DNA of 60,189 bases from Terriglobales bacterium (GTDB lineage: Bacteria > Acidobacteriota > Terriglobia > Terriglobales > SCQP01), in the NCBI GenBank assembly GCA_051959955.1, contig JBQCEU010000181.1:1-60189 (forward strand), read 5' to 3'. Made by a program: the position numbers and the translations under genes. Below, piece by piece: positions 8,707-31,102 of this stretch. The stretch's first letter is position 1; the number at the start of each line of letters is the position of its first letter. The notes below the pieces were generated by a model. It did not search any database. It was not told the origin of the DNA and was given only the letters and a program-made list of their open reading frames with translations.

Positions 8707-8837
8707 GCTTTTCAACAGTTTGAAAATAGTTCTAAAGGAATTCTAATCATCGGCCGATCTCTGTCTTTGTCGGGACATGTGTCTCCGATTTCGCCTCAGG
8801 CGAGTCGTGACGGCACTGTCCCAGTAGGAGAAACGGG

Positions 8838-10553
8838 ATGATTTACAATCGCATTGCAGCGCGCCTCGATCTCGGCAGGGGTTGCCGCTTTATAGTTTTG
8901 TGGGCCGCCTTGACCGCCGCCCTCGCTGCTGCCACGTTGCCGGGCCAGGGAGTGCTGGTGCACCTCAACTCCACCGATGTGGCTGGATTCAACTTCCGCC
9001 ATGCGACCCAGGCTTTGCGCCTGAACCCCACCCGCGACCTTTATCTGGTGGTTGCCACCGACGGCCGTACCGACCAGCAGCTCCTGACCGAGATACAGAC
9101 CGATCCGGTGGCCGTCAATCCGGTTCTCAACGCTCCCGTCGCCCTGGCGCAGCCCGCCCTCGACGGTCAGTCCACGGCTTCGGTGCTGAACGGTTCGACA
9201 TCTACGACCACTACCACCACCGCCAGCTCGGGCGGCCTGCTCGGTGGGCTTCTCCAACCTGTGCTCAATTTGGCTGGCAACCTGCTCAACCCGCTTCTGG
9301 GCACAGTGCTGAACGTCAACATCAACTTGGGCGGCAGCACAAGCTCGAGTGGAATTCTCAACTCCGCGCCCACGTATTTCTATGGCGCGGTGGTCCCCCA
9401 AGCCTATCCGCAGCAGAAGGCCGTCAGTCAGATCAGCGCCGGTTCTGCGGCTCATAATCTGGCCACCGGCAAGGGTGTGGAAGTGGCGCTGATTGACAAC
9501 GGTGTCGATCCGTTCAACCCGGTGTTGACGCCGTCTCTCGACGGTAGCCGCGGCTATAACTTCTACGACAACAGCCCCAATTGGTCTGCCTACGCTGACC
9601 TTGCCGATGGCCCGGCATCCGGATCCAATCTCGACGGCCAATCCACGGCTTCGGTGCTGAACGGCCAGTCCACCGCCTCGGTTCTGAATGGCCAGTCCAC
9701 CGCTTCCGTGCTCAACGGCAGTACCTGCCAACAACAGTTCGGTGCCGACGGTTCGCGGCTGAATCAGTCCACCGCTTCGGTGCTGAACGGCCAATCCACC
9801 GCCTCGGTGCTAAACAGCGAGGACAGCACCACGGTGATCAGCGAACTGAACCTGATCCTGGGCTGCGATCCGGATTTTGGCCACGGTACATCGGTAGCGG
9901 GCCTCATCCATCTGGTGGCGCCGCAAACCAGGATTCTGCCCATCAAGGCCTTCGGCCCCGGTGGCACCGCCGATGTGGCGGCGATCTACCAGTCCATCAC
10001 CTATGCCATTGACCAGCATGTGCAGGTGATGAATCTGAGCTTCAGTGCCACCGCCGCCTCGCCGGTCATCCAGGCGGCAATTCAGGAAGCTATTCACGAC
10101 GGCATCGTGGTGGTAGCGGCCGCCGGCAACGACAGCGGAAGCACCGCCGTCTACCCTGCTTCGCTGCCCGGCGTGCTCGGCGCCGGTGCGGTGGATGGCA
10201 CCCAGGCCGGCTTCCCGCGTGCGCCGTACTCGAATTACGATCCCGCGCCGGGCATCATTCAGAACGCGGACGTAGCCGCGCCCGGCACCAGCCTGTTCAC
10301 GACTTTCCCCGGCGGCGGCCAGATTTGGGCCACGGCCACCGGCACCTCCTTCAGCACCCCGCTGATCGCCGGCGAAGCTGCCCTGCTGGCGCAGTTGCAG
10401 CAAACCGGCGCCGCCGGCAGGAAGCTGATCGAGAACACCGCCAACCCCGCGATTACCGGAGATGCCCATGGCGAATTGGGCCACGGCATGGTGAACGTCG
10501 AGTCCGCGCTCCGCTCGGCTTCACCCGGCTTGTTGTCCTGGCTGCTCTGGTAA
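8838..10553 (+). CDS. Exported S8 (subtilisin-like) serine peptidase with a repeat-bearing insertion
   Basis: Catalytic contexts are present: VALIDNGVD (Asp), HGTSVAGLI (His) and GTSFSTPLIAGEAALL (Ser). It has an N-terminal signal-like segment. An AGGAG sequence lies 7 nt upstream of the ATG. Confidence 0.9.
   Translation: MIYNRIAARLDLGRGCRFIVLWAALTAALAAATLPGQGVLVHLNSTDVAGFNFRHATQALRLNPTRDLYLVVATDGRTDQQLLTEIQTDPVAVNPVLNAPVALAQPALDGQSTASVLNGSTSTTTTTTASSGGLLGGLLQPVLNLAGNLLNPLLGTVLNVNINLGGSTSSSGILNSAPTYFYGAVVPQAYPQQKAVSQISAGSAAHNLATGKGVEVALIDNGVDPFNPVLTPSLDGSRGYNFYDNSPNWSAYADLADGPASGSNLDGQSTASVLNGQSTASVLNGQSTASVLNGSTCQQQFGADGSRLNQSTASVLNGQSTASVLNSEDSTTVISELNLILGCDPDFGHGTSVAGLIHLVAPQTRILPIKAFGPGGTADVAAIYQSITYAIDQHVQVMNLSFSATAASPVIQAAIQEAIHDGIVVVAAAGNDSGSTAVYPASLPGVLGAGAVDGTQAGFPRAPYSNYDPAPGIIQNADVAAPGTSLFTTFPGGGQIWATATGTSFSTPLIAGEAALLAQLQQTGAAGRKLIENTANPAITGDAHGELGHGMVNVESALRSASPGLLSWLLW
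9168..9194 (+). repeat. Solo copy of the QSTASVLNG coding module in the subtilase pro-region
   Basis: The sequence cag tcc acg gct tcg gtg ctg aac ggt encodes QSTASVLNG, preceded by LDG as in the first tandem copy. Confidence 0.9.
9639..9818 (+). repeat. In-frame array of five 27-nt modules encoding QSTASVLN(G/S), as 3 contiguous copies, a 45-nt spacer and 2 contiguous copies
   Basis: Copies lie at 9639-9665, 9666-9692, 9693-9719, 9765-9791 and 9792-9818. The QSTASVLN core is identical in all of them, while the codons differ at synonymous sites (caa/cag, acg/acc, gct/gcc, tcg/tcc, gtg/gtt, ctg/ctc/cta, aac/aat). Confidence 0.9.
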
Positions 10554-10627: not shown

Positions 10628-12700
10628 ATGAAATCCCGTCTAATTCTGCTGGGCGCGGTGGTCACTTTGTGGGCCGCCGCGCCGCTTGCTGCTCAGCACC
10701 CGGTAAGTCTGCAAGACGTAATGAACCTGAAGAGCCCCGGTTCCGTGGCCATGTCGCCCGACGGCCAGTGGGTGCTGTACACGGTGCGCGGCTGGACTCC
10801 CGCATCCGCCGGGCAGAAGAAGCCGGTAAAGGAAGAGTCGCGCAGCCATGTCTGGCTGGTCTCGGCCAGCGATCCATCCGGCGCCGGTGCTCCGCGACAA
10901 ATTACCTTCGGTGACAAGGGAGAAAGCGCTCCGGCCTGGTCCCCGGATGGCAAATACATCAGCTTTATTGCCAACCGTCCGGATCCTGACGACCCCGCTG
11001 CCAAGCCTTCGGGCCAGATCTACGTGATGCGAGCCGATGGCGGCGAAGCTCACGCGGTTACCTCGGGCGAGGGCGGTGCCTCCAGCTATGCCTGGTCGCC
11101 CGACGGTACCCGGATTGCCTTCTTGCGCGTTCCCCCCTTGAGCGACGCCGCACAAGCCGCCGAAAAGCGCGGCGACGATGTCGCCGAATATGAAGGTGAC
11201 TTCCGTTTGGCCCGCCTGTGGACAGTGAACCTGGCCAACGGCAAAGAGACAGATTGGACCAGGGGCGACGACTTCACCCTCAAGGGCTCCCCCGTCTGGT
11301 CCCCCGATGGTCGCCAGTTGGTTTTTGCCGCCTCCCCCACCACGCTGCTGCGCGACAATCGCACCAACCTCTATTTGTTGACGTTGGCCACCAAGCAGGT
11401 GCGCCGGCTCACTCAGGGCCTTTCCGCATCTTCCTCACCAGCCTGGTCGCCCGACGGCCTCTCCATCGCTTACCTTTTCGATCCTGACGCCTACAAGGCC
11501 CTCGGGGATGGCATCCCCTTCCAGGACAGCCACAATTCCCACCTGATGCTGCTCGATGTGGCCACCGGCCAAAGCCGCGATCTCTCCTCGCCTGCGTTCG
11601 ATCTCTACGCAGGCAGTCCGGTGTGGTCGCCCGATGGCCGCCAGATTCGCTTCACCACCGGTGATCAGGTCTGGCAGGACGTCTTTTCCTATGACCTCGC
11701 CGGCGGCCAGTACCGCAAGATCACCCATCAACAAGTGATTCGCCTCGATGACCGCAGCTTCAGCCGCGATGGCTCCCGCGTGGCCTTCTTGAGTGAAACC
11801 TCCACCGAACCGGGCGATGTCTATGTCGCGGGCAATGATTTTGCGGCGCCCCGCCGCCTTACCCGCGTCAACCCCCAGGTCGCCGATTTCGCCCTGGGAG
11901 CGACCACGGTATTGCACTGGAAGAGCAGCGATGGCTGGCCGGTCGAGGGTCTGCTGCTTAAGCCCGTCGGGTATCAGCCAGGCCATCGTTATCCGTTGCT
12001 GGTCAACGTCCATGGCGGTCCCACCGGCGCCTTTGCCAACGGCTTCGCCGCCTACAACCAGTTCTGGGCAGGGAAGGGATGGGCGGTGCTTCTGGTCAAC
12101 CCGCGTGGCAGCACCGGCTACGGTGAGAAGTTTCTGCGCGGCAACATCAATGATTGGGGTGGGGGCGACTATCGCGACATCATGACCGGCGTGGACGCGG
12201 CTATTGCCGCCGGTATCGCTAACCCTGACAAGATGGGCGAATGGGGCTGGAGCTACGGCGGCTACATGACCTGCTGGATCGTCTCCCAGACTGGCCGCTT
12301 CAAAGCCGCCATGATGGGCGCCGGGCTCAGCGACCTGGTGAGCATGTACGGCACCACCGATATCCCCAACTACCTCGGCGGCTTCCTCGGCGGTTATCCC
12401 GATGCCGCCACGCTGAAGCTGTATCGGGAGCGTAGTGGCCTTACCTATGCGGACCACGTTACCTCGCCGCTCCTCATTTTGCAGGGCGCCGAAGATGAGC
12501 GCGTACCCACCAGCCAGTCGCTGGAATTTTTCCGCGCCCTGAAGGATCGCGGCAAGACCGTGCGGCTATTCTTCTATCCGCGCGAGCACCACGGATTTGT
12601 CGAGTACTACCATCTGCTCGATCGCTACCAGCGCATTTACGACTGGATCAGCCATTACACCCTGGGTACCGAACCGGTTTTACCCGCGGAGAGAAATTAG
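10628..12700 (+). CDS. Exported S9 family peptidase (beta-propeller plus alpha/beta-hydrolase domain)
   Basis: Has a signal peptide (MKSRLILLGAVVTLWAAAPLAAQ) and repeated W-SPDG propeller motifs. The nucleophile elbow is GWSYGGYM and the C-terminal catalytic His context is EHHGF. Confidence 0.9.
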   Translation: MKSRLILLGAVVTLWAAAPLAAQHPVSLQDVMNLKSPGSVAMSPDGQWVLYTVRGWTPASAGQKKPVKEESRSHVWLVSASDPSGAGAPRQITFGDKGESAPAWSPDGKYISFIANRPDPDDPAAKPSGQIYVMRADGGEAHAVTSGEGGASSYAWSPDGTRIAFLRVPPLSDAAQAAEKRGDDVAEYEGDFRLARLWTVNLANGKETDWTRGDDFTLKGSPVWSPDGRQLVFAASPTTLLRDNRTNLYLLTLATKQVRRLTQGLSASSSPAWSPDGLSIAYLFDPDAYKALGDGIPFQDSHNSHLMLLDVATGQSRDLSSPAFDLYAGSPVWSPDGRQIRFTTGDQVWQDVFSYDLAGGQYRKITHQQVIRLDDRSFSRDGSRVAFLSETSTEPGDVYVAGNDFAAPRRLTRVNPQVADFALGATTVLHWKSSDGWPVEGLLLKPVGYQPGHRYPLLVNVHGGPTGAFANGFAAYNQFWAGKGWAVLLVNPRGSTGYGEKFLRGNINDWGGGDYRDIMTGVDAAIAAGIANPDKMGEWGWSYGGYMTCWIVSQTGRFKAAMMGAGLSDLVSMYGTTDIPNYLGGFLGGYPDAATLKLYRERSGLTYADHVTSPLLILQGAEDERVPTSQSLEFFRALKDRGKTVRLFFYPREHHGFVEYYHLLDRYQRIYDWISHYTLGTEPVLPAERN

Positions 12701-13470
12701 CCCTCCTCCGCGCGCGCAAACAGGTGTCCACTGGCCGGCCAAGCCACCCCGGCGCAAAGCTGCACCCCGCTTTCCGCGTGCAGCAACGAATAGCCGAGCG
12801 GATGCAGCAGCTCGCTGATGGCCTGTGTGCGATCGCACTTGTGGCGGGCCGAGGTGCCATGGATCTCAATCAGCAGGTCAGGGCGGTGCGCGTTCAGCGT
12901 CGCCCGGGCGCCGCGCAACACTTCGAGCTCGTAGCCTTCCACATCAATCTTGATGAATTGCGGCGGAGGCAGCGGTACAGCGCCCATCAGCACGTCCAGT
13001 CTCTCCACCCGAACGGCGCCGGCGGCGAGCCGCAACGGGGTGCGCGCTTCCGAAGCCAGGGAAGCCGTGGTGGGCATGCCGGGCAGCATAAAAATGGTTC
13101 GATCCCCCGGCTCCGCGCCCAGGGCAATTTGCAGCGGCAGCACGTTGCGTATCTGGTTCCGCTGCAGATTGCTGAAGAGAGTGTTAAAGCCGGCCGCCCG
13201 CGGCTCGAACGCCACCACGCGCCCGCCATCCCCTACCCGCCGCGAGAAAAAAAGACTGTAGGCCCCGTTGAACGCGCCCACGTCGTAAACCACAAGGCCC
13301 TGCAGCGGCAGGGTTTCCAGCAGCCGCTCCTCCGGACTGCGCAGCCCCGGCAGGCGCGTCCAGCCGGGCAGGGTCCAGCCGTCGCAGTTGTGGAATCCCG
13401 ACGCCATGTTGCGCCGCAGCAAGCCCGGCCGGTATCGCCCCAATGGCCCCAACCACCGGCGCAGGCTCAC
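12697..13470 (-). CDS. FkbM-family SAM-dependent methyltransferase
   Basis: Contains VYDVGAFNGAYSLFF (SAM motif I) and FIKIDVEGYELEVLRG, typical of FkbM. The GTG start at 13470 forms a GTGA overlap with the upstream stop, so I preferred it to the longer listed ORF. Confidence 0.8.
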   Translation of the reverse strand: MSLRRWLGPLGRYRPGLLRRNMASGFHNCDGWTLPGWTRLPGLRSPEERLLETLPLQGLVVYDVGAFNGAYSLFFSRRVGDGGRVVAFEPRAAGFNTLFSNLQRNQIRNVLPLQIALGAEPGDRTIFMLPGMPTTASLASEARTPLRLAAGAVRVERLDVLMGAVPLPPPQFIKIDVEGYELEVLRGARATLNAHRPDLLIEIHGTSARHKCDRTQAISELLHPLGYSLLHAESGVQLCAGVAWPASGHLFARAEEG

Positions 13471-14216
13471 GGCTGGGCTCCCTCGGCATAGGGCGGCACC
13501 GGGCTGATGCATGAAAACTGAAAGCCGCCGTAGCGGATCGTCAGCACGGCTCGCCCGAACCACCGCAAGTGGGCAATGGTGTGGCTTGCCTCCGGCAGCC
13601 AAAAGTCACCAATCTTTTGGTTGTGGTAATCAAATTCCGCATGGGTCACCCAGAACGAATGAACATCGGGGAGTACACCTTCAATGCGCTCGATGCCAAA
13701 GTCGTCCGGGTTGACCCAAACCTTCCCGTGAAACAGGAAACGTTGGCTCTTGGGCTTTAACGGCGTGGCTCGCAGAACGTAGTCGCGCTGGTTCTCGCCG
13801 TCCGGTTTCTGCAGCAGTTCGAAGCGATAGTTGGCCGGCCCGATCGCCAGCCCTTGCTGGCGGGTCACCTCCGCGTCGTTCTCTTCGGCCTTCACCAAAG
13901 GCTCCAGGACATGGTGCCGCAGCATGCCCGAACCCGCCTCTGAAGTAATGGTGAACCGCTTGGGGCCCGGTTCCTGGTAATCCATGCGCACCGTCATGTC
14001 CGCACTATGGTGCCCCACTCCGCTGTATTCGATGTGGTAAATGCGCATGGCCGAATAGGCATGCAGCGCCTGTGTCCGGGCTGCGTTCATCGCCACCATG
14101 CGCTTCACCACCTCAGCGGCCGGCAATGGCCCTGCGCTGGCGGCGGGCGCGGTCAGTTGCCAGCCCAGACATAGCCCCGCCAACGCCACCACCGCCAGCT
14201 TCCAGTTCTTGCTCAT
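13467..14216 (-). CDS. Exported LolA-like (outer-membrane lipoprotein-sorting-like) protein
   Basis: Has a signal peptide (MSKNWKLAVVALAGLCLGWQLTAPAASA). Overall pattern and size resemble LolA-like or DUF-type lipoprotein-sorting folds, judged from memory. I chose the ATG at 14216. Confidence 0.55.
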   Translation of the reverse strand: MSKNWKLAVVALAGLCLGWQLTAPAASAGPLPAAEVVKRMVAMNAARTQALHAYSAMRIYHIEYSGVGHHSADMTVRMDYQEPGPKRFTITSEAGSGMLRHHVLEPLVKAEENDAEVTRQQGLAIGPANYRFELLQKPDGENQRDYVLRATPLKPKSQRFLFHGKVWVNPDDFGIERIEGVLPDVHSFWVTHAEFDYHNQKIGDFWLPEASHTIAHLRWFGRAVLTIRYGGFQFSCISPVPPYAEGAQP

Positions 14217-14355
14217 TATGTTCAGACGGTTTGGATGCGTCCGGACGGCAGTTTTTTTCGGCTTTCCGCGGCGACGGCCGAGCAAAGCCGGCTGTGCCGG
14301 CGGCAACTTGCCTTACAATACTGGCGTTCTTCATACTCGCGGCTTGGGAGGCCAT

Positions 14356-25972: not shown

Positions 25973-26590
25973 ATGGCAACCCACCTCGAGCCGGTAGCCG
26001 CGGCTTCCTCCTACAGCGACGAACACGAACTGGTGCGCCGCGCCCAATCGGGCGATCTGTCGGCGTTCGAGGTCATCGTGCAGCGCTACGAGCACCGCAT
26101 CTATCGCCTGGTGCAGCGCATGTTGGCCAACACCGCCGATACCGAGGATGTGCTGCAGGAGACCTTCCTCAAGGTCTTCTCCAAGCTCAAGCAGTTCCAG
26201 GAGCAGTCGAAGCTGTACACCTGGATCGTGCGCATCGCCGTCAACGAAGCCTTGATGAAGTTGCGCAAACGCCGCGGCAATGTCATCTCGCTCGACGCCG
26301 ACGTGCCTTCGGAAGAAGGCCCGATGCCGCGGGAAATCGAAGACAAGCATCCCAACCCCGAGCTCCAGTACCAGACGAGTGAACTGGGGGATCTGCTGCA
26401 GCACAGCCTGGAGGCGCTGCCGCTCGGTTACCGCGTGGTCTTTCAACTGCGGGATGTCGAGGAGCTGTCCACCGCGGAAACCGCGGAAATGCTGGGGTTG
26501 AGCGAGGCGGCGGTCAAATCGCGCCTGCTGCGCGCGCGGTTGCAGTTGCACCAGCGCCTGCGGCGCCATGTCAACCGGGAAGGAGCCTGA
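25973..26590 (+). CDS. ECF (group IV) RNA polymerase sigma factor
   Basis: Region 2 is FEVIVQRYEHRIYRLVQRML...DVLQETFLKVF...WIVRIAVNEALMKLRKR. Region 4 is LRDVEELSTAETAEMLGLSEAAVKSRLLRAR. Confidence 0.9.
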   Translation: MATHLEPVAAASSYSDEHELVRRAQSGDLSAFEVIVQRYEHRIYRLVQRMLANTADTEDVLQETFLKVFSKLKQFQEQSKLYTWIVRIAVNEALMKLRKRRGNVISLDADVPSEEGPMPREIEDKHPNPELQYQTSELGDLLQHSLEALPLGYRVVFQLRDVEELSTAETAEMLGLSEAAVKSRLLRARLQLHQRLRRHVNREGA

Positions 26591-26595
26591 TCCAC

Positions 26596-26850
26596 ATGAA
26601 CTGTCGCGAGCTGCTCGAGCAACTGGAGAGCCTGCTGGACGGCGGCGCCGAGCGCAGCCCCGCCCTGCGGCAGCATCTGGCCATCTGTTCCGGCTGCCGC
26701 CAGCTCGTGGCCACCTGCCGCCAGACCATCCACTATTACCGCAGCGAGCCCGCGCCCCCCATCCCCGCCGCGCTGCATCGCAAACTGATGGAGAAGGTGA
26801 ATGGCAAGGCCGCGCCGCTTGCCCCCCGGCGTCCGCCCGCGAGCAGCTAG
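26596..26850 (+). CDS. Soluble zinc-binding anti-sigma factor (ZAS, zf-HC2)
   Basis: Has an H-x3-C-x2-C motif (HLAICSGC) plus an N-terminal Cys. It is 84 aa with no TM segment and starts 5 nt after the sigma factor stop. Confidence 0.75.
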   Translation: MNCRELLEQLESLLDGGAERSPALRQHLAICSGCRQLVATCRQTIHYYRSEPAPPIPAALHRKLMEKVNGKAAPLAPRRPPASS

Positions 26851-26858
26851 GAGACGAC

Positions 26859-27077
26859 ATGGGCCTATCCATCCTCGGCTGTCCCCATAATCATTTGAGC
26901 TTTCCCATGGTGACGCGCGAGCCCCACGCTCCGGCGCCGCCGGGTGACGCATCCGGCGCGCCGCTGGCCCACGTCACCTGCCTCGACTGCGGCCGCGAAT
27001 TCTGGTACGACTGGGGACGCATGCGCCGGCTCTCCGAGCGCCTCCGCCCGGTCTATCCGCCCCGCCGCGCCGCCTGA
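26859..27077 (+). CDS. Small hypothetical protein (C-P-H-x-H ... C-x2-C, zinc-ribbon-like)
   Basis: AGGAG lies 6 nt upstream of the ATG at 26859. The 72-aa product is MGLSILGCPHNH...VTCLDCGREFWYDW. It is the third gene in the sigma/anti-sigma operon. Confidence 0.45.
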   Translation: MGLSILGCPHNHLSFPMVTREPHAPAPPGDASGAPLAHVTCLDCGREFWYDWGRMRRLSERLRPVYPPRRAA

Positions 27078-27080
27078 GCT

Positions 27081-29198
27081 TCACCCTGCCTCGACCAGTC
27101 CGTAGCGCCGCTGCCAGCGCTGCTGGATCTCGCTCACCAGCGCCCTCATCTCGTCCGGCTGGGCCCGGTCCAGGTAGTCCCGTGCCTGTTGCCGCACCTG
27201 GGCCATCAGCTCCAGGTCGCGCACCGGGTGCGCCACATGAAAGGCCGGCAGGCCGCTCTGCCGGGTGCCGAACATCTCGCCTGGTCCGCGCAGCTTGAGA
27301 TCCAGTTCCGCCAGCGCGAACCCGTCGCGCGTTTGGGCCAGGGCCTGCAGCCGCCGCTGCGCCGCCTCCCCCGGCCGGGGGCCGGTCACCAGGAAGCAGT
27401 GGGAAGGCTCCGCGGTCCCGGCTGCCCGCGGTTGCGGACGTCCGATCCGCCCGCGCAACTGGTGCAACTGCGCGATGCCGAACCGCTCCGCGTGCTCGAT
27501 CACCATCAGCGTCGCGTTGGGTACGTCAACGCCCACTTCGATGACCGTGGTCGCCACCAGGGCCTGCAAGGCGCCCTGCCGAAAGGCCTGCATGAGGGCA
27601 TGCTTTTCCTCTGCCGGCAGCCGCCCGTGGAGCAGACCCAGCCGCAGCCGCGGATATTGGCGCTGCAGTCTGGCAAACATTTTCTGGGCGGGCTTGAGGT
27701 CGAGTTGGGCTGATTCTTCAATCAGCGGATAGACGAAATACGCCTGGCGGCCCGCCTCCAGCCGGCGGTTCACAAAGTCATAGACGGCATCGGCGCGGCT
27801 CGCCTCCACCACGCGCGTATGGATGGGCAAGGCGCCCGGCGGCGCCTGTCGCAGCGTGCTCACCTCCAGGTCGCCGTACAGGGTCAGGGCCAGCGAACGC
27901 GGAATCGGGGTGGCGGTCATCACCAGCACGTGCGCCGCCCGCTCTGTCCCCGCCCGGTCTTTGTGCATCAGTTGGAAGCGCTGCATCACGCCGAAGCGGT
28001 GCTGCTCGTCCACGATCACCAGGCCCAGCCGCTCGAGGCGATGCCGGCCCTCCAGCAGGGCCTGCGTGCCGATGGCCAACTGCGGCTCTCCCGCCGTCCG
28101 CCGCCTGCCGCCGGTCACCAGCGCCACGTGATAGTCGGGCAGCCGCTGCCGCGCCACCAGGTAATGCTGTTCCGCCAGAATCTGCGTGGGCGCCATCAGC
28201 GCCACCTGGTAGCCGTTCTCCATCGCCACCACCGCCGCCTGCAGGGCGACAATGGTTTTGCCGCTGCCGACATCGCCTTGCAGCAGCCTCCGCATGGGAT
28301 GGCCCGAGCACATGTCGCCCACGATGTCGCGCAGCGCGTTCTTTTGGTCGGCCGTGGGGTGGAACGGCAGCAGCTTCTTGAGCGCTTCGCGCATGGGCGG
28401 CTGCACCGTCATCTCCACGCCCGCCTGCCGCCGCACCCGGCGCTGTTTCAGCTCCAGCCCGGCCTGCAGGAAAAACAACTCTTCGAAGATCAGCCGCCGG
28501 TGCCCCGGGGTGCGTGCGTTCTCCAATTCCGCCGGCGGGGTGTCGGGCGGGGGAAAGTGCACCTGCTCCAGCGCCGCCCGCCGGTCCGGCAGCCCCAGCC
28601 CGGCGCGAAGGCCGGCGGGCAGCGCATCCGGCAGCTCTCTGGGCAGCGCTGCCAGCGCGCTGTGCACCAGCCGCCGCAGCCGCGCCGCCCCCAGCGCCCC
28701 GATGGCCTCGTACACCGGCACGATGCGGCCCAGCTTGAGCGAACCCACGGTGCCCTCGTCCGCCTGCAGCCGTTCAATCTCCGGCTGGCGCATGAGCAGG
28801 CGTCCGCGCTCGCGGATCAGTTTCCCATAGAGCGCCACCATCGCGCCCGAGGCAAACTGATCGCGCAAAAACCCGGCGTGATACCAGCCGCAGCGCATCA
28901 TCCCCGTGCCGTCATTCACCAGCATCTCCATGGTGACCACGCCGCGCTGCGTGCGCCCCATGGCCACGGTATGCACTTGCGCCACCACCACCGCCGCTTC
29001 GCCCTCCACCAGCTCGCGAATGCTGCGCCTCCGGCTGCGGTCCTCGTAGCGAAAGGGAAGCGTGGTGATCAAATCCTCCACGGTAAAGACCCCGCGCTGC
29101 TGCAGGACGCGCGCCAACTTCGGTCCCACGCCCTTGACAAACTGCACCTCCGTCGCCAGGCTCAGGCGGGAAGATTCCGGAACGGGCGCATCCAGCAT
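27081..29198 (-). CDS. recG: ATP-dependent DNA helicase RecG
   Basis: Has a wedge domain, helicase motif I (GDVGSGKT), DEQHRFG and QLHQLRGRIGR. I chose the ATG at 29198 (MLDAPVP). Confidence 0.95.
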   Translation of the reverse strand: MLDAPVPESSRLSLATEVQFVKGVGPKLARVLQQRGVFTVEDLITTLPFRYEDRSRRRSIRELVEGEAAVVVAQVHTVAMGRTQRGVVTMEMLVNDGTGMMRCGWYHAGFLRDQFASGAMVALYGKLIRERGRLLMRQPEIERLQADEGTVGSLKLGRIVPVYEAIGALGAARLRRLVHSALAALPRELPDALPAGLRAGLGLPDRRAALEQVHFPPPDTPPAELENARTPGHRRLIFEELFFLQAGLELKQRRVRRQAGVEMTVQPPMREALKKLLPFHPTADQKNALRDIVGDMCSGHPMRRLLQGDVGSGKTIVALQAAVVAMENGYQVALMAPTQILAEQHYLVARQRLPDYHVALVTGGRRRTAGEPQLAIGTQALLEGRHRLERLGLVIVDEQHRFGVMQRFQLMHKDRAGTERAAHVLVMTATPIPRSLALTLYGDLEVSTLRQAPPGALPIHTRVVEASRADAVYDFVNRRLEAGRQAYFVYPLIEESAQLDLKPAQKMFARLQRQYPRLRLGLLHGRLPAEEKHALMQAFRQGALQALVATTVIEVGVDVPNATLMVIEHAERFGIAQLHQLRGRIGRPQPRAAGTAEPSHCFLVTGPRPGEAAQRRLQALAQTRDGFALAELDLKLRGPGEMFGTRQSGLPAFHVAHPVRDLELMAQVRQQARDYLDRAQPDEMRALVSEIQQRWQRRYGLVEAG

Positions 29199-29215
29199 GG
29201 CCTCTATAATGACAG

Positions 29216-31102
29216 GTGGTGTGGAACTCTCGATGTCAGCGGGTTGCGCGGCCGGGCCGCGCCGGGGCCCGCGCCCGCGCATGGCTGCCGGCCTTGCTGG
29301 CAGCTCTACTGGCACAAACGGTTTTGGCTGCAGCGGCGGGTGCAGCCGGGCCCCTTTCCCGGCCTGCGCCGCCGCCGCCGGCGGCCCTGCGCCGCGCCCT
29401 CGAAGCCGCCCACGACGGCCAACTCGACCGGGCGTTTTTCCTGGCCCGCCGCGCCGTCGAACAGCAGCCTGAAAACCAGGAACTGATCACCATCCGCGAA
29501 ATTCTCCGCCAGCGGGCGGTGATGGCCCACCTCCAGTCCGGCCGCAAACTGGCGGGCTTGGGCCGGCATGACGCCGCCGCCGCGGAGTTTCGCTCCGCCC
29601 TGGCTCTCGACCCGGGCAGCGCCGATGCCCGCCTCGGCCTGGCGCAGCAGTATCCTTCCCGCACGCCCGCGGCGCCCACCGACACCCGCCTGCGTGTCGA
29701 GCGCGCGGCTCCGCCCATTCTGGTCGCGGCCGCGCCGGGCCGGCGCGACTTTCACCTGCGCCTGAGCACCCCCGATGCCGCGGCCCAGGTCGCGTCCGCC
29801 TACGGCTTGCGCGCCTACGTCGCCACGGATGTGCCCCGCACCCAGGTGCGCCTCGATCTTGACCACGCCACCTTCACCCAGGCCATGACCGCGCTGCGAG
29901 CGGTGAGCGGCCTCGATTGGATTCCGCTCGACGCCCACACCCTCTACTTCGGCACTGTGGCGCAGCTCAAGGCACGCCAACCACTGGCCACGCGCACCTT
30001 TTACCTGCCTTGGGTGGCGGATACCATCACCTTGAACCAGATCACCGGCGCCGTCCGCACGCTGCTCGCGGTTCCACAGGCGATGCCCGATGCCGATGCC
30101 AATACGCTGACCGTCCGCGGAACCCCGGAACAATTGGATGCCGTCGAGGCGCTCCTGCTGCATCTGCACGGCGCGCCGGGCGAAGTGCTGCTCGAAGTGC
30201 GCGTGCTGGATCTGAGCAGCACCACCGCCCGCGATCTCGGCCTCTCGCTCCCCAACCAGTTCACCATGTTCTCGCTGGCGCCGCTGCTCGCCCAGCTCAA
30301 AAACAGCGGCAGCCTGTCGCAGGACATCCTCAACCTGTTCGAGCAGGGCGGGTTGAATGCCGTCCTCAACTCCGGCATGCTCTCCCCCTCGGACCTGGCC
30401 AACGCGCAATCCCTGCTTTCCCCCCTGCTGCAGAATCCGTTCGTGGTTTTTGGCGGCGGCGCCACGCTGATGGCGGTGTCCGTGCCCAGCTTCACCGCCC
30501 AGTTGAATGCCGCCCAGGGCCGGGTGACAAGCATCGAAACCGCGCTCCTGCGCGCCCAAAGCGGTCAGAACGCCGAACTGAAAATCGGCCAGCGTTACCC
30601 GGTCATCAACGCTTCGTTTGCGCCCATCACCCTCAGCCCGGAGATCAGCAAGGTGCTGGGCAACGGCAGTTTCATCCAGCCCTTCCCCTCCTTCACCTAC
30701 CAGGATCTGGGTCTCGACGCCAAGGTGACGCCCTACGTCGCCCTCAATGGCGAGCTGCGCCTGCAGCTCGACCTCACCATCTCCAGCCTCACCGGCGCCT
30801 CCAGCAACAATATTCCCATCGTCAACCAGCGTCATCTGGTTACCGAAGTCGGCCTGCGCGATGGGGAGCCGGTGATGGTGGCCGGTTTGTTCAACAACCA
30901 GGAGATGCGCAGCCTCTCCGGCCTGCCCGGCCTGTCACAAATCCCCGGCCTGGGCAGGCTCTTCTCCTCCGAAAATCTTCAAACCGCACACAGCCAGTTG
31001 GCGCTGCTGATCACTCCCCATCTGGTGCAATTGCCGCAGCGCCAATCGCCCGGTATCTGGCTCCCCGCCGGCTTCGCCCCGGTCGCCGCCGCCGGTAACT
31101 GA
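29216..31102 (+). CDS. Secretin-family outer-membrane channel protein with an N-terminal TPR-like region
   Basis: The C-terminal secretin signature is VAGLFNNQEMRSLSGLPGLSQIPGLGRLFSS...LALLITPHLV. The N-terminus is signal-like, followed by TPR-like helices. It uses a GTG start. Confidence 0.8.
   Translation: MVWNSRCQRVARPGRAGARARAWLPALLAALLAQTVLAAAAGAAGPLSRPAPPPPAALRRALEAAHDGQLDRAFFLARRAVEQQPENQELITIREILRQRAVMAHLQSGRKLAGLGRHDAAAAEFRSALALDPGSADARLGLAQQYPSRTPAAPTDTRLRVERAAPPILVAAAPGRRDFHLRLSTPDAAAQVASAYGLRAYVATDVPRTQVRLDLDHATFTQAMTALRAVSGLDWIPLDAHTLYFGTVAQLKARQPLATRTFYLPWVADTITLNQITGAVRTLLAVPQAMPDADANTLTVRGTPEQLDAVEALLLHLHGAPGEVLLEVRVLDLSSTTARDLGLSLPNQFTMFSLAPLLAQLKNSGSLSQDILNLFEQGGLNAVLNSGMLSPSDLANAQSLLSPLLQNPFVVFGGGATLMAVSVPSFTAQLNAAQGRVTSIETALLRAQSGQNAELKIGQRYPVINASFAPITLSPEISKVLGNGSFIQPFPSFTYQDLGLDAKVTPYVALNGELRLQLDLTISSLTGASSNNIPIVNQRHLVTEVGLRDGEPVMVAGLFNNQEMRSLSGLPGLSQIPGLGRLFSSENLQTAHSQLALLITPHLVQLPQRQSPGIWLPAGFAPVAAAGN

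Follow-up and report, generated by a model that had tools for sequence, protein, structure and literature searches.

Peptide signalling by the RRNPP(A) systems of Firmicutes (Rap-Phr, NprR-NprX, PlcR-PapR, PrgX) depends on a secreted precursor that exported proteases cut, and the resulting short, unmodified peptide is imported through an oligopeptide permease (Opp) and bound by a cytoplasmic tetratricopeptide repeat (TPR) receptor. Fungal repeat precursors processed by Kex2, such as alpha-factor and the ustiloxin-type dikaritins, contain tandem identical peptides that are cut by a kexin of the S8 family, and their copy number varies between species. Subtilases also tolerate large insertions between the catalytic Asp and His, as in tripeptidyl-peptidase II and insertion IS1 of Tk-subtilisin. 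We know of no described subtilase in which an insert or junction carries identical, lineage-specific octapeptides that co-evolve over copies and paralogues. The gene considered here lies on a 60,189-nucleotide stretch of DNA from a Terriglobales bacterium (Acidobacteriota; assembly GCA_051959955.1, contig JBQCEU010000181.1, positions 1-60,189), referred to at its full length as the window, and encodes an S8 subtilase with six copies of the octapeptide QSTASVLN. Judged by sequence comparison, these units are a genome-specific octapeptide cassette, common to relatives, that typifies a very large clade of secreted subtilases from Acidobacteriota. The feature appears to be a far variant of the multi-copy peptide precursors and could prove to be a new signalling architecture.

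The window gene adds a new member to family S8. In line with that MEROPS family, the catalytic residues occur in the order Asp-His-Ser, with an oxyanion Asn, within a Peptidase_S8 domain, and the closest sequence matches among solved structures are variants of subtilisin BPN'. In the AlphaFold2 (AF2) model, which has a mean predicted local distance difference test score (pLDDT) of 77.8, both the pro-domain and the catalytic domain are confident. The features of the gene are as follows.

8838..10553, plus strand: S8 subtilase gene, 571 aa, the repeat carrier (open reading frame list; Pfam PF00082 Peptidase_S8, E 6e-30).
8838..8945, plus strand: signal-like segment at the N-terminus, aa 1-36 (hydropathy scan, AF2).
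8946..9149, plus strand: pro-domain with a subtilisin-propeptide-like fold, aa 37-104 (AF2, Foldseek).
9168..9191, plus strand: octamer copy 1, QSTASVLN, aa 111-118, just past the pro-domain and preceded by A-L-D-G (exact match).
9192..9362, plus strand: linker of low complexity, aa 119-175, containing a run of Thr and, in degenerate form, four hydrophobic-Leu-Asn half-sites (PVLN, NLLN, TVLN, GILN).
9495..9497, plus strand: catalytic Asp220 in ALIDNGVD (nearly invariant column, alignment A1).
9612..9821, plus strand: Asp-His insert, aa 259-328, holding copies 2-6 (disordered surface loop as predicted by AF2).
9639..9662, plus strand: octamer copy 2, aa 268-275, preceded by N-L-D-G (exact match).
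9666..9689, plus strand: octamer copy 3, aa 277-284 (exact match).
9693..9716, plus strand: octamer copy 4, aa 286-293 (exact match).
9765..9788, plus strand: octamer copy 5, aa 310-317, preceded by R-L-N (exact match).
9792..9815, plus strand: octamer copy 6, aa 319-326, 22 residues ahead of GHGT (exact match).
9882..9884, plus strand: catalytic His349 in GHGT (invariant column, alignments A1 and A2).
10128..10130, plus strand: oxyanion-hole Asn431 (invariant column, aligning with Asn155 of subtilisin BPN').
10347..10349, plus strand: catalytic Ser504 in a G-T-S-F-S context (invariant column).

All six copies are exact, with one ahead of the catalytic domain and five between Asp220 and His349, just as the original prediction placed them, and no further QSTASVLN occurs elsewhere in any frame of the window. 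The copies vary at seven nucleotide positions, all of them third codon positions, and there are no non-synonymous differences. Seven of the eight codons vary among the six copies, Ser2 being TCC throughout. The mean pairwise difference is 3.2 nucleotides per 24, compared with 6.1 +/- 0.7 expected for independent codon draws. The divergence is thus about half of saturation, somewhat less than the original wording suggested. Tandem Repeats Finder reports the first three copies of the insert as a 27-nucleotide array with 83% matches.

A protein search with the window S8 gave 231 relatives, nearly all from metagenome-assembled genomes (MAGs) of Terriglobales and other Acidobacteriota, and named only 'S8 family serine peptidase'. 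Combined with the S8 proteins from genome loci, they yield 194 non-identical homologues, and 146 of these contain the motif Q-S-T-x-x-[IV]-L-[DNE] at least twice. The octamer takes 45 distinct forms, for example QSTASVLN, QSSASVLN, QSTVSVLN, QSTVAVLD, QSTAAVLD, QETTPILD, QRTVAVLD and QHTAAMVD, and some cluster-linked S8 members have other variants (YTTAILD, QSLQPILE, EQSITALVE). Multi-copy members contain between 2 and 27 copies by a relaxed motif count, with a spacing of 8, 9 or 10 residues. In short members of the family, the copies number one to a few and end 6-9 residues ahead of GHGT. The long type, which includes the window S8, has extra copies past the pro-domain and a helix before the His. 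The octamer is strictly retained in orthologues that are only 50-65% identical overall, and a second search, with one clade member, matched at least 7,638 protein clusters (90% identity) at E <= 1e-40. Repeats of the QSTASVLN kind in S8 peptidases of Acidobacteriota, first noticed in this single gene, are a clade hallmark and not an oddity of the window. A full-text search for the motif strings found no paper containing them in the library searched.

Further repeat patterns occur in relatives. The protein P0016 (locus L092, 10001-12175) contains QSTASVLN 26 times in exact form; 21 of these units make up a single tandem array with a 9-residue period, whose DNA differs mainly at the third codon positions of Thr and Ala. 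This indicates a recent array expansion atop old dispersed copies. Degenerate units are also present (GQTTASVLN, GKSTSSVLN, DQSSAPVLN). P0016 and P0003, the orthologue of the window gene, are paralogues from the same MAG, and both carry QSTASVLN. In one locus from Thermoanaerobaculia (L017, 7428-9941), a second S8 adjoining the motif-bearing one has a different short repeat, six units of DGLLWS, at its C-terminus.

The history of the copies is clearest in eight loci with tandem pairs of S8 paralogues. Type-a members are 62-81% identical across genomes, and type-b members likewise, whereas identity between a and b within a genome is only 52-58%, placing the duplication before the origin of the species. 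The two paralogues of one genome always have one common octamer, and this octamer differs between genomes (QSSTSILD, QSTAGILD, QSTTSILD, QSTAGILE, QSTESILD, QSTSTVLE). Between copies in relatives, as many as 14 of 24 nucleotides can differ with no change in the encoded peptide. The genome of locus L012, with QSSTSILD, is nested among three with QSTTSILD (L014, L018, L022). Its seven Ser3 codons are AGC, TCC, AGT, AGT, TCT, TCC and AGC, representing two one-step routes from Thr ACN, so that every copy made the Thr-to-Ser change on its own. At Ser5, each copy keeps its codon class (AGY or TCN) in all four species, and the copies are therefore old and orthologous, without homogenisation by gene conversion. 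The same mixed-route pattern is found in the window's own clade, where P0012 (L094, QSSASVLN) has the codons AGC, AGC, TCG, TCC, TCG and TCG. Among 120 close relatives of P0089, three copies of QSTVAVLD occur in 107, three of QSSVAVLD in 8, and a mixture in 3. Read from the codons, all copies in two lineages have switched from Thr to Ser, which is parallel selection and not gene conversion.

A neutral origin by slippage or gene conversion, with no function for the units, has two observations in its favour: array expansion does occur (the 21 tandem units of P0016 have few DNA differences), and the window copies are less diverged than independent codon draws. It is contradicted by the codon evidence, in which many synonymous differences stand against no non-synonymous ones, both Ser codon classes arise at one position via independent routes, and orthologous copies retain their own codon class between species. 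The retention of the motif over more than 7,600 protein clusters also counts against it, and we give this explanation practically no weight. The octamer is almost certainly a selected functional module. Purifying selection on the peptide, proposed originally from the window copies in preference to recent slippage, is upheld by conservation among orthologues, by synonymous divergence reaching 14 of 24 nucleotides, and by the independent codon routes from Thr3 to Ser.

The predicted structure places the units in flexible parts of a protease that otherwise resembles a subtilisin zymogen. The hydropathy scan shows a basic N-terminus followed by a hydrophobic stretch (aa 15-36), and AF2 models the signal-like segment as a helix (12-30) of low pLDDT. 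The pro-domain reaches pLDDT 96-98 (aa 39-102) with a beta-alpha-beta-beta-alpha-beta pattern. For the whole model, Foldseek ranks unprocessed pro-subtilisin E (3whi, TM 0.82 on target) first among the matches that span both domains. The propeptide is of the I9 type by predicted fold, the Pfam I9 model having given no sequence match. A docked pro-domain and autoprocessing at its C-terminal junction would be features in common with ordinary subtilisin maturation. The linker (pLDDT 42-49) falls at the pro/mature junction in alignment A2, as do the octamer copies that precede the Asp, and its final half-site ends 5 residues ahead of the conserved start of the catalytic domain. Copy 1 is modelled as a short strand (aa 114-117) with pLDDT of about 50-60. 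The Asp-His insert varies widely in length among homologues. Its possible exposure as a surface loop, raised in the original prediction, agrees with the AF2 model, in which it is predicted to be disordered (pLDDT 33-47) with no stable secondary structure. In the model of P0072, a minimal member of the family, pLDDT is about 60 for the pair of loop copies, with a short strand and a helix, a result of little weight either way. The low pLDDT in both models suggests that the units are short linear motifs in exposed segments and not a repeat fold.

Two further features of the pro-domain and linker region are seen. Five extra [VIL]-L-N tripeptides (PVLN twice, NLLN, TVLN, GILN) lie in the C-terminus of the pro-domain and the linker (9111-9362, aa 92-175), and none is present beyond His349 in the window S8. 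The same region contains the Thr run STSTTTTTTASS, with a Tandem Repeats Finder array at 9202-9220.

Structural or glycosylated linker modules with no ligand role, whether through O-glycosylation of Ser/Thr, strands of a repeat fold or amyloid-like assembly, would be in keeping with the Ser/Thr-rich units and the Thr run nearby, and identical strands could favour in-register stacking. However, the copies have pLDDT of 33-47 and about 60 without a repeat fold, their spacing is 8, 9 or 10 residues, and their number ranges from 1 to 27; a repeat fold is ruled out by the low pLDDT together with the variable spacing. Glycosylation would need neither the invariant Gln1 and Leu7 nor identity across two paralogues, and N-x-S/T sequons are not conserved among spacing variants. 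We consider such a role very improbable.

Signs of excision are found at the edges of the units. In 382 copies that begin a run, position -2 relative to Gln (once any Gly spacer is removed) is Leu in 63% and hydrophobic in 84%, and directly ahead of Gln stands one of D, N, S, T and Q. The dipeptide [LVIMF][DNE] has a background frequency of 3.3%. In the window, the run-initial copies are preceded by A-L-D-G, N-L-D-G and R-L-N. Every unit is thus bracketed by Leu-x on both sides, and this bracketing fits excision with defined ends at a subtilisin-type P1 Leu. Subtilisin BPN' has a general preference for hydrophobic residues at P1, such as Leu, and at P4, and an acidic residue at position 156 disfavours an acidic P1. 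This position is Asp432 in the window S8, and Glu or Asp in most members with D-type motifs, and we therefore favour cleavage after Leu, with D, N or E as P1'. From these sequence patterns, proteolytic excision of the octamers seems on balance probable. Trimming could then leave the invariant Gln1 at the N-terminus, where, more speculatively, it might cyclise to pyroglutamate. A placement of copy 1 in the active-site cleft was considered and dropped, as alignment with the subtilisin junction ...VEEDHVAHAY indicates that the canonical P4-P1 may be V-A-L-A (aa 101-104).

These same features would suit a role confined to the protease, in which the octamers are autoprocessing or pseudo-substrate sites that inhibit the zymogen and are removed stepwise on activation, the peptides being by-products. 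Segments removed on activation had been listed as an alternative from the outset, and this is still a live rival that explains both the position of the copies and the Leu-x. The copies occur at the pro/mature junction and in the loop beside the catalytic His, x-[IV]-L matches the hydrophobic P1 and P4 preference of subtilisin, Leu-x lies on the flanks of every unit, and degenerate hydrophobic-Leu-Asn sites occur throughout the linker. The whole model is also like unprocessed pro-subtilisin, and orphan genes such as that of the window have no regulatory cluster. However, the most conserved residues, Q1, S2 and T3, correspond to P7-P5, beyond the usual S4-S1 subsites, whereas P4 and P3 are the most variable. 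The parallel sweep from Thr3 to Ser affected all copies and both paralogues with the catalytic domain unchanged, which a broad-specificity cleft would not enforce. No catalytic-domain column was found to co-vary with the Thr/Ser switch, and the reader of octamer positions 1-5 is therefore probably outside the protease cleft. The operon with a peptide importer and cytoplasmic sensing proteins, described next, would also go unexplained. We regard a role within the protease only as the main rival, though rather unlikely.

The genomic context in relatives was examined in 80 species-representative genome loci, 64 of which contain a motif-bearing S8, with neighbours counted within 10 kb. A TPR protein ending in a CHAT protease domain (TPR-CHAT) is found in 60 of the 64, a protein referred to here as anti-sigma-like in 57, an SBP_bac_5 solute-binding protein (SBP) in 52, a sigma factor of the extracytoplasmic function (ECF) type in 51 and an HD_5 protein in 22. 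Where a gene is missing, the contig often ends. The SBP, ECF and CHAT genes of L007 overlap at their stop and start codons. Four loci related to the window gene illustrate the arrangement.

L003 (P0027): anti-sigma-like protein, S8, HD_5.
L092 (P0016): S8, HD_5.
L095 (P0017, long type, 60% identical to the window S8): permease, SBP_bac_5, TPR-CHAT, HD_5, S8, two ATP-binding cassette (ABC) ATPases.
L091 (P0064, short type, QSTASVLN): ECF, TPR-CHAT, anti-sigma-like protein, S8.

The cluster gene directly upstream of S8 encodes a protein of roughly 200 aa with an HL..GC..C motif and a beta-sandwich, here called anti-sigma-like as a putative assignment. This protein (L005 7365-7964, L007 7225-7848, L003 7261-7899 and 52 others) has no Pfam family above threshold. 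Its conserved pattern reads HF..WADF.R...HL..GC..C, followed by L.FDS and, at the C-terminus, by a region resembling a beta-sandwich (N.FGEF) with a weak CarboxypepD_reg match. The L.FDS element is a candidate cleavage site for TPR-CHAT. By hydropathy, signal-like N-termini among the cluster proteins are present only in the SBP and S8. The ECF, TPR-CHAT, anti-sigma-like and HD_5 proteins have no signal or transmembrane segment, isolated internal peaks near the threshold not being read as membrane segments. With this predicted topology, the peptide importer would be the sole encoded route across the membrane.

Searches for previous descriptions gave little. As of June 2026, NCBIfam has no specific model for the S8, TPR-CHAT or anti-sigma-like protein, and PADLOC returned weak matches only, so that the cluster is not a recognised defence system. 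No description of a cluster of CHAT, ECF, oligopeptide, S8 and HD-GYP genes was found in a full-text search of the same library, and the main text of the ECF reclassification paper mentions neither CHAT nor peptidases. The locus-specific heptamer was never found outside the S8 genes in 50 loci. A synthetic tandem-octamer query for non-S8 carriers returned one S8 fragment only, a result that says little, HMMER composition filters having probably removed most matches. Where the S8 lies apart from the SBP-ECF-CHAT genes, it is followed by a protein of 362 aa whose C-terminal tail, PTPEPATFAVAGLGLLALVALKRARV, is PEP-CTERM-like (L009, 9594-10682).

Since the regulators are soluble and cytoplasmic, the importer is the sole route and the peptide-bearing protease is exported, excision followed by import and sensing is the simplest model joining them. 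In this model the S8 protease, or a paralogue, would after export and folding cut beside the invariant Leu on either side of each unit. The pro-domain and linker would be removed, and identical peptides of about 7-10 residues would be freed and possibly trimmed to Gln1. These peptides would be a specific ligand, taken up in most relatives by the Opp-type ABC importer of the same operon. The cytoplasmic TPR-CHAT protease would then sense the peptide and cleave the soluble anti-sigma-like protein, freeing the ECF sigma factor. The role of the window gene, an orphan paralogue with expanded repeats, would be to add more of the same peptide. The joint reading, that the peptides are self-excised, imported and sensed, is one in which we infer cleavage, import and sensing alike, and it falls slightly short of an even chance. 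Import and sensing of an excised peptide, taken as a step, is a tentative proposal. That the full chain constitutes an undescribed device of Acidobacteriota and some neighbouring phyla, with the subtilase as multi-copy precursor of an unmodified, species-specific peptide, excision, import by a dedicated Opp-type transporter, activation of TPR-CHAT and release of the ECF sigma, is possible but rather doubtful.

Uncleaved octamers could instead act as docking motifs for a partner in the periplasm or outside the cell (the Opp-type binding protein, a component of the cell envelope or another copy of the protease), with multivalency providing avidity. The predicted disorder is typical of short linear motifs, copy number and spacing are variable, identity over copies and paralogues fits one common partner, and SBP and S8 are both predicted to be exported. 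However, Leu-x is needed even upstream of the first copy of each run, which cut sites explain more easily, and copies lie at the junction where all pro-subtilisins are cut. Peptide-binding proteins of Cluster C also usually require free peptide termini. Docking therefore appears improbable.

Returning to excision, import and sensing, the likeness to RRNPP(A) lies in an SBP_bac_5, an ABC transporter and a cytoplasmic TPR protein encoded with a peptide carrier in relatives of the window gene, and in peptide variants that are lineage-specific in both. A TPR protein (TPR-CHAT) and an SBP_bac_5 protein lie near the peptide source in most loci (60 and 52 of 64, respectively) and are absent from the window; no separate peptide carrier was found in 50 loci. 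In RRNPP the peptide comes from a small separate gene and the receptor has a phosphatase or helix-turn-helix (HTH) output, whereas here it is present in many copies inside the protease itself and the TPR protein ends in a CHAT protease domain. The proposed output is an ECF sigma, the hosts are Acidobacteriota, and release and sensing are deduced from genes. Kex2 precursors differ in being separate proteins processed at dibasic sites in the secretory pathway, whereas here the carrier is the protease and the flank is Leu-x.

The type III-E Craspase module consists of Cas7-11, the TPR-CHAT protease Csx29, Csx30, Csx31 and the ECF sigma RpoE, and its protease cleaves a soluble inhibitor (PMC10028731). 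In both, genes for a cytoplasmic TPR-CHAT protease, an ECF sigma and a soluble inhibitor (here putative) occur together. The CHAT domain of the cluster scored 49 bits against the Csx29 model (cut-off 300, hence sub-threshold), and no cas genes were among the called genes of the loci read. The proposed activator here is an imported peptide, whereas that of Craspase is target RNA, and the anti-sigma-like protein belongs to another family (HL..GC..C motif, beta-sandwich). Both the RRNPP and the Craspase parallels are analogy and not membership, as the defining features of neither are present.

Several points weigh against import and sensing. No TPR-CHAT, anti-sigma-like, SBP or HD_5 gene lies within the 60-kb window, and the link to the module comes through relatives. 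Some family members have a single octamer copy. A count of lineage-specific substitutions in L012 relative to L014, L018 and L022 gave no signal in the SBP, ECF, TPR-CHAT, anti-sigma-like protein or S8 that would mark a co-evolving partner of the octamer. Cleavage or release of any copy is itself something we infer from sequence, and cutting after Leu gives heterogeneous N-termini (D-G-Q, N-G-Q or N-Q) unless these are trimmed. An Opp-type binding protein beside a secreted protease could serve nutrition alone, and the HD-GYP-like gene has no role in the model.

With its more than 7,600 clusters, the clade is very large, and it comes from dominant soil bacteria, in which signalling is almost unknown. 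If the octamers are indeed excised signals, this would be, to our knowledge, the first protease to serve as its own multi-copy pheromone precursor, and import-and-sense peptide signalling would reach beyond Firmicutes. TPR-CHAT proteases would gain a ligand-controlled role outside CRISPR systems, and there would be a peptide-import route to ECF signalling, possibly used for communication between cells, with variants such as Thr3/Ser3 resembling pherotypes. In that case the window gene would be an orphan amplifier of a peptide signal. Even if the units are only self-recognition sites, their lockstep change by independent mutations in up to seven dispersed copies and two paralogues is an unusually clean example of selection for identity, and the Thr3 and Ser3 variants are a natural specificity pair.

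The genes directly downstream of the window S8 were the basis of a different proposal. They are the following, both in the positions first reported.

10628..12700, plus strand: S9 peptidase (PD40 propeller and Peptidase_S9, E 1e-49) with a signal-like N-terminus.
12697..13602, minus strand: FkbM methyltransferase (Methyltransf_21), convergent with the S9 gene.

The original prediction took the octamers for enzyme-embedded cores resembling those of ribosomally synthesized and post-translationally modified peptides (RiPPs), released or modified by these two neighbours. There are likenesses to cyanobactins, whose multi-core PatE precursors are cut by the S8 proteases PatA and PatG, and to borosins, in which an enzyme-fused core peptide is released by an S9 peptidase. 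The S9 and FkbM genes do sit downstream, and the S9 protein resembles the lasso-peptide isopeptidase model weakly and below threshold (177 bits, cut-off 400). However, the linkage is not conserved. In the syntenic loci L001/L002 (P0003) and L093 (P0006) the order is rho, carboxyltransferase, S8 and FkbM (minus strand), with no S9 between S8 and FkbM. Neither gene accompanies S8 in L003, L092, L094 or L095, the neighbours in L094 (P0012) being unrelated. The S9 gene, found between S8 and FkbM only in the window among these syntenic regions, is therefore an insertion in the window or a loss in the syntenic loci, and not a partner of S8. FkbM is on the opposite strand and is a separate gene, whereas in borosins enzyme and core are fused; the carrier here has only a Peptidase_S8 domain, and S9 is absent in L001, L093, L094, L095 and L003.

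The remaining evidence also argues against RiPP-like cores. The window S8 scored 65.5 bits against the cyanobactin PatA/PatG model (TIGR03895, cut-off 421). No separate precursor gene or conserved tailoring enzyme of the cyanobactin kind was found in the window or across the loci, and no modifying enzyme is conserved with S8 over the 64. In contrast to cyanobactins and borosins, there is neither a separate precursor nor a conserved modifying enzyme or S9, and the enzymes are exported. Hydropathy indicates signal-like N-termini in both S8 and S9, and export of the two peptidases had already been raised as an objection to a cytoplasmic RiPP pathway. We consider the RiPP reading extremely improbable. 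The broader idea that the peptides are meant to be cut out survives without the RiPP frame, as plausible excision of unmodified peptides associated with an Opp importer, TPR-CHAT and an ECF sigma.

A non-coding stretch at about 8728-8795, 5' of the window S8 start, is conserved in L001 and L093, where the proteins are only about 62% identical. It follows the pattern TCTAAAG..TTCTAAyC.TC.GCCGATCTCT...GGGAmA.GTGTC, and then a conserved GTAGGAGAAAC ribosome-binding region. This stretch may be a promoter or operator. A shared S8 promoter was rejected, as a GATTCTAA-like element lies upstream of only 9 of 96 S8 genes, mostly close relatives.

Other reading frames in the window were also noted. Antisense frames opposite S8 and its neighbours, such as 8796-9794 (minus strand, 332 aa), have no family match and were treated as high-GC artefacts. 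Between FkbM and an amidohydrolase gene, a 279-aa frame (13467-14306, minus strand) has a signal-like hydrophobic segment and no Pfam or NCBIfam match; an unannotated 252-aa gene is located at the corresponding place in L093. The window contains an ordinary ECF sigma gene (25973-26590, plus strand; Sigma70_r2, Sigma70_r4_2) adjoining recG (27081-29315, minus strand), with no CHAT or SBP gene nearby. It is overlapped by a 169-aa frame (26568-27077, plus strand) without a Pfam match, which is a possible anti-sigma factor.

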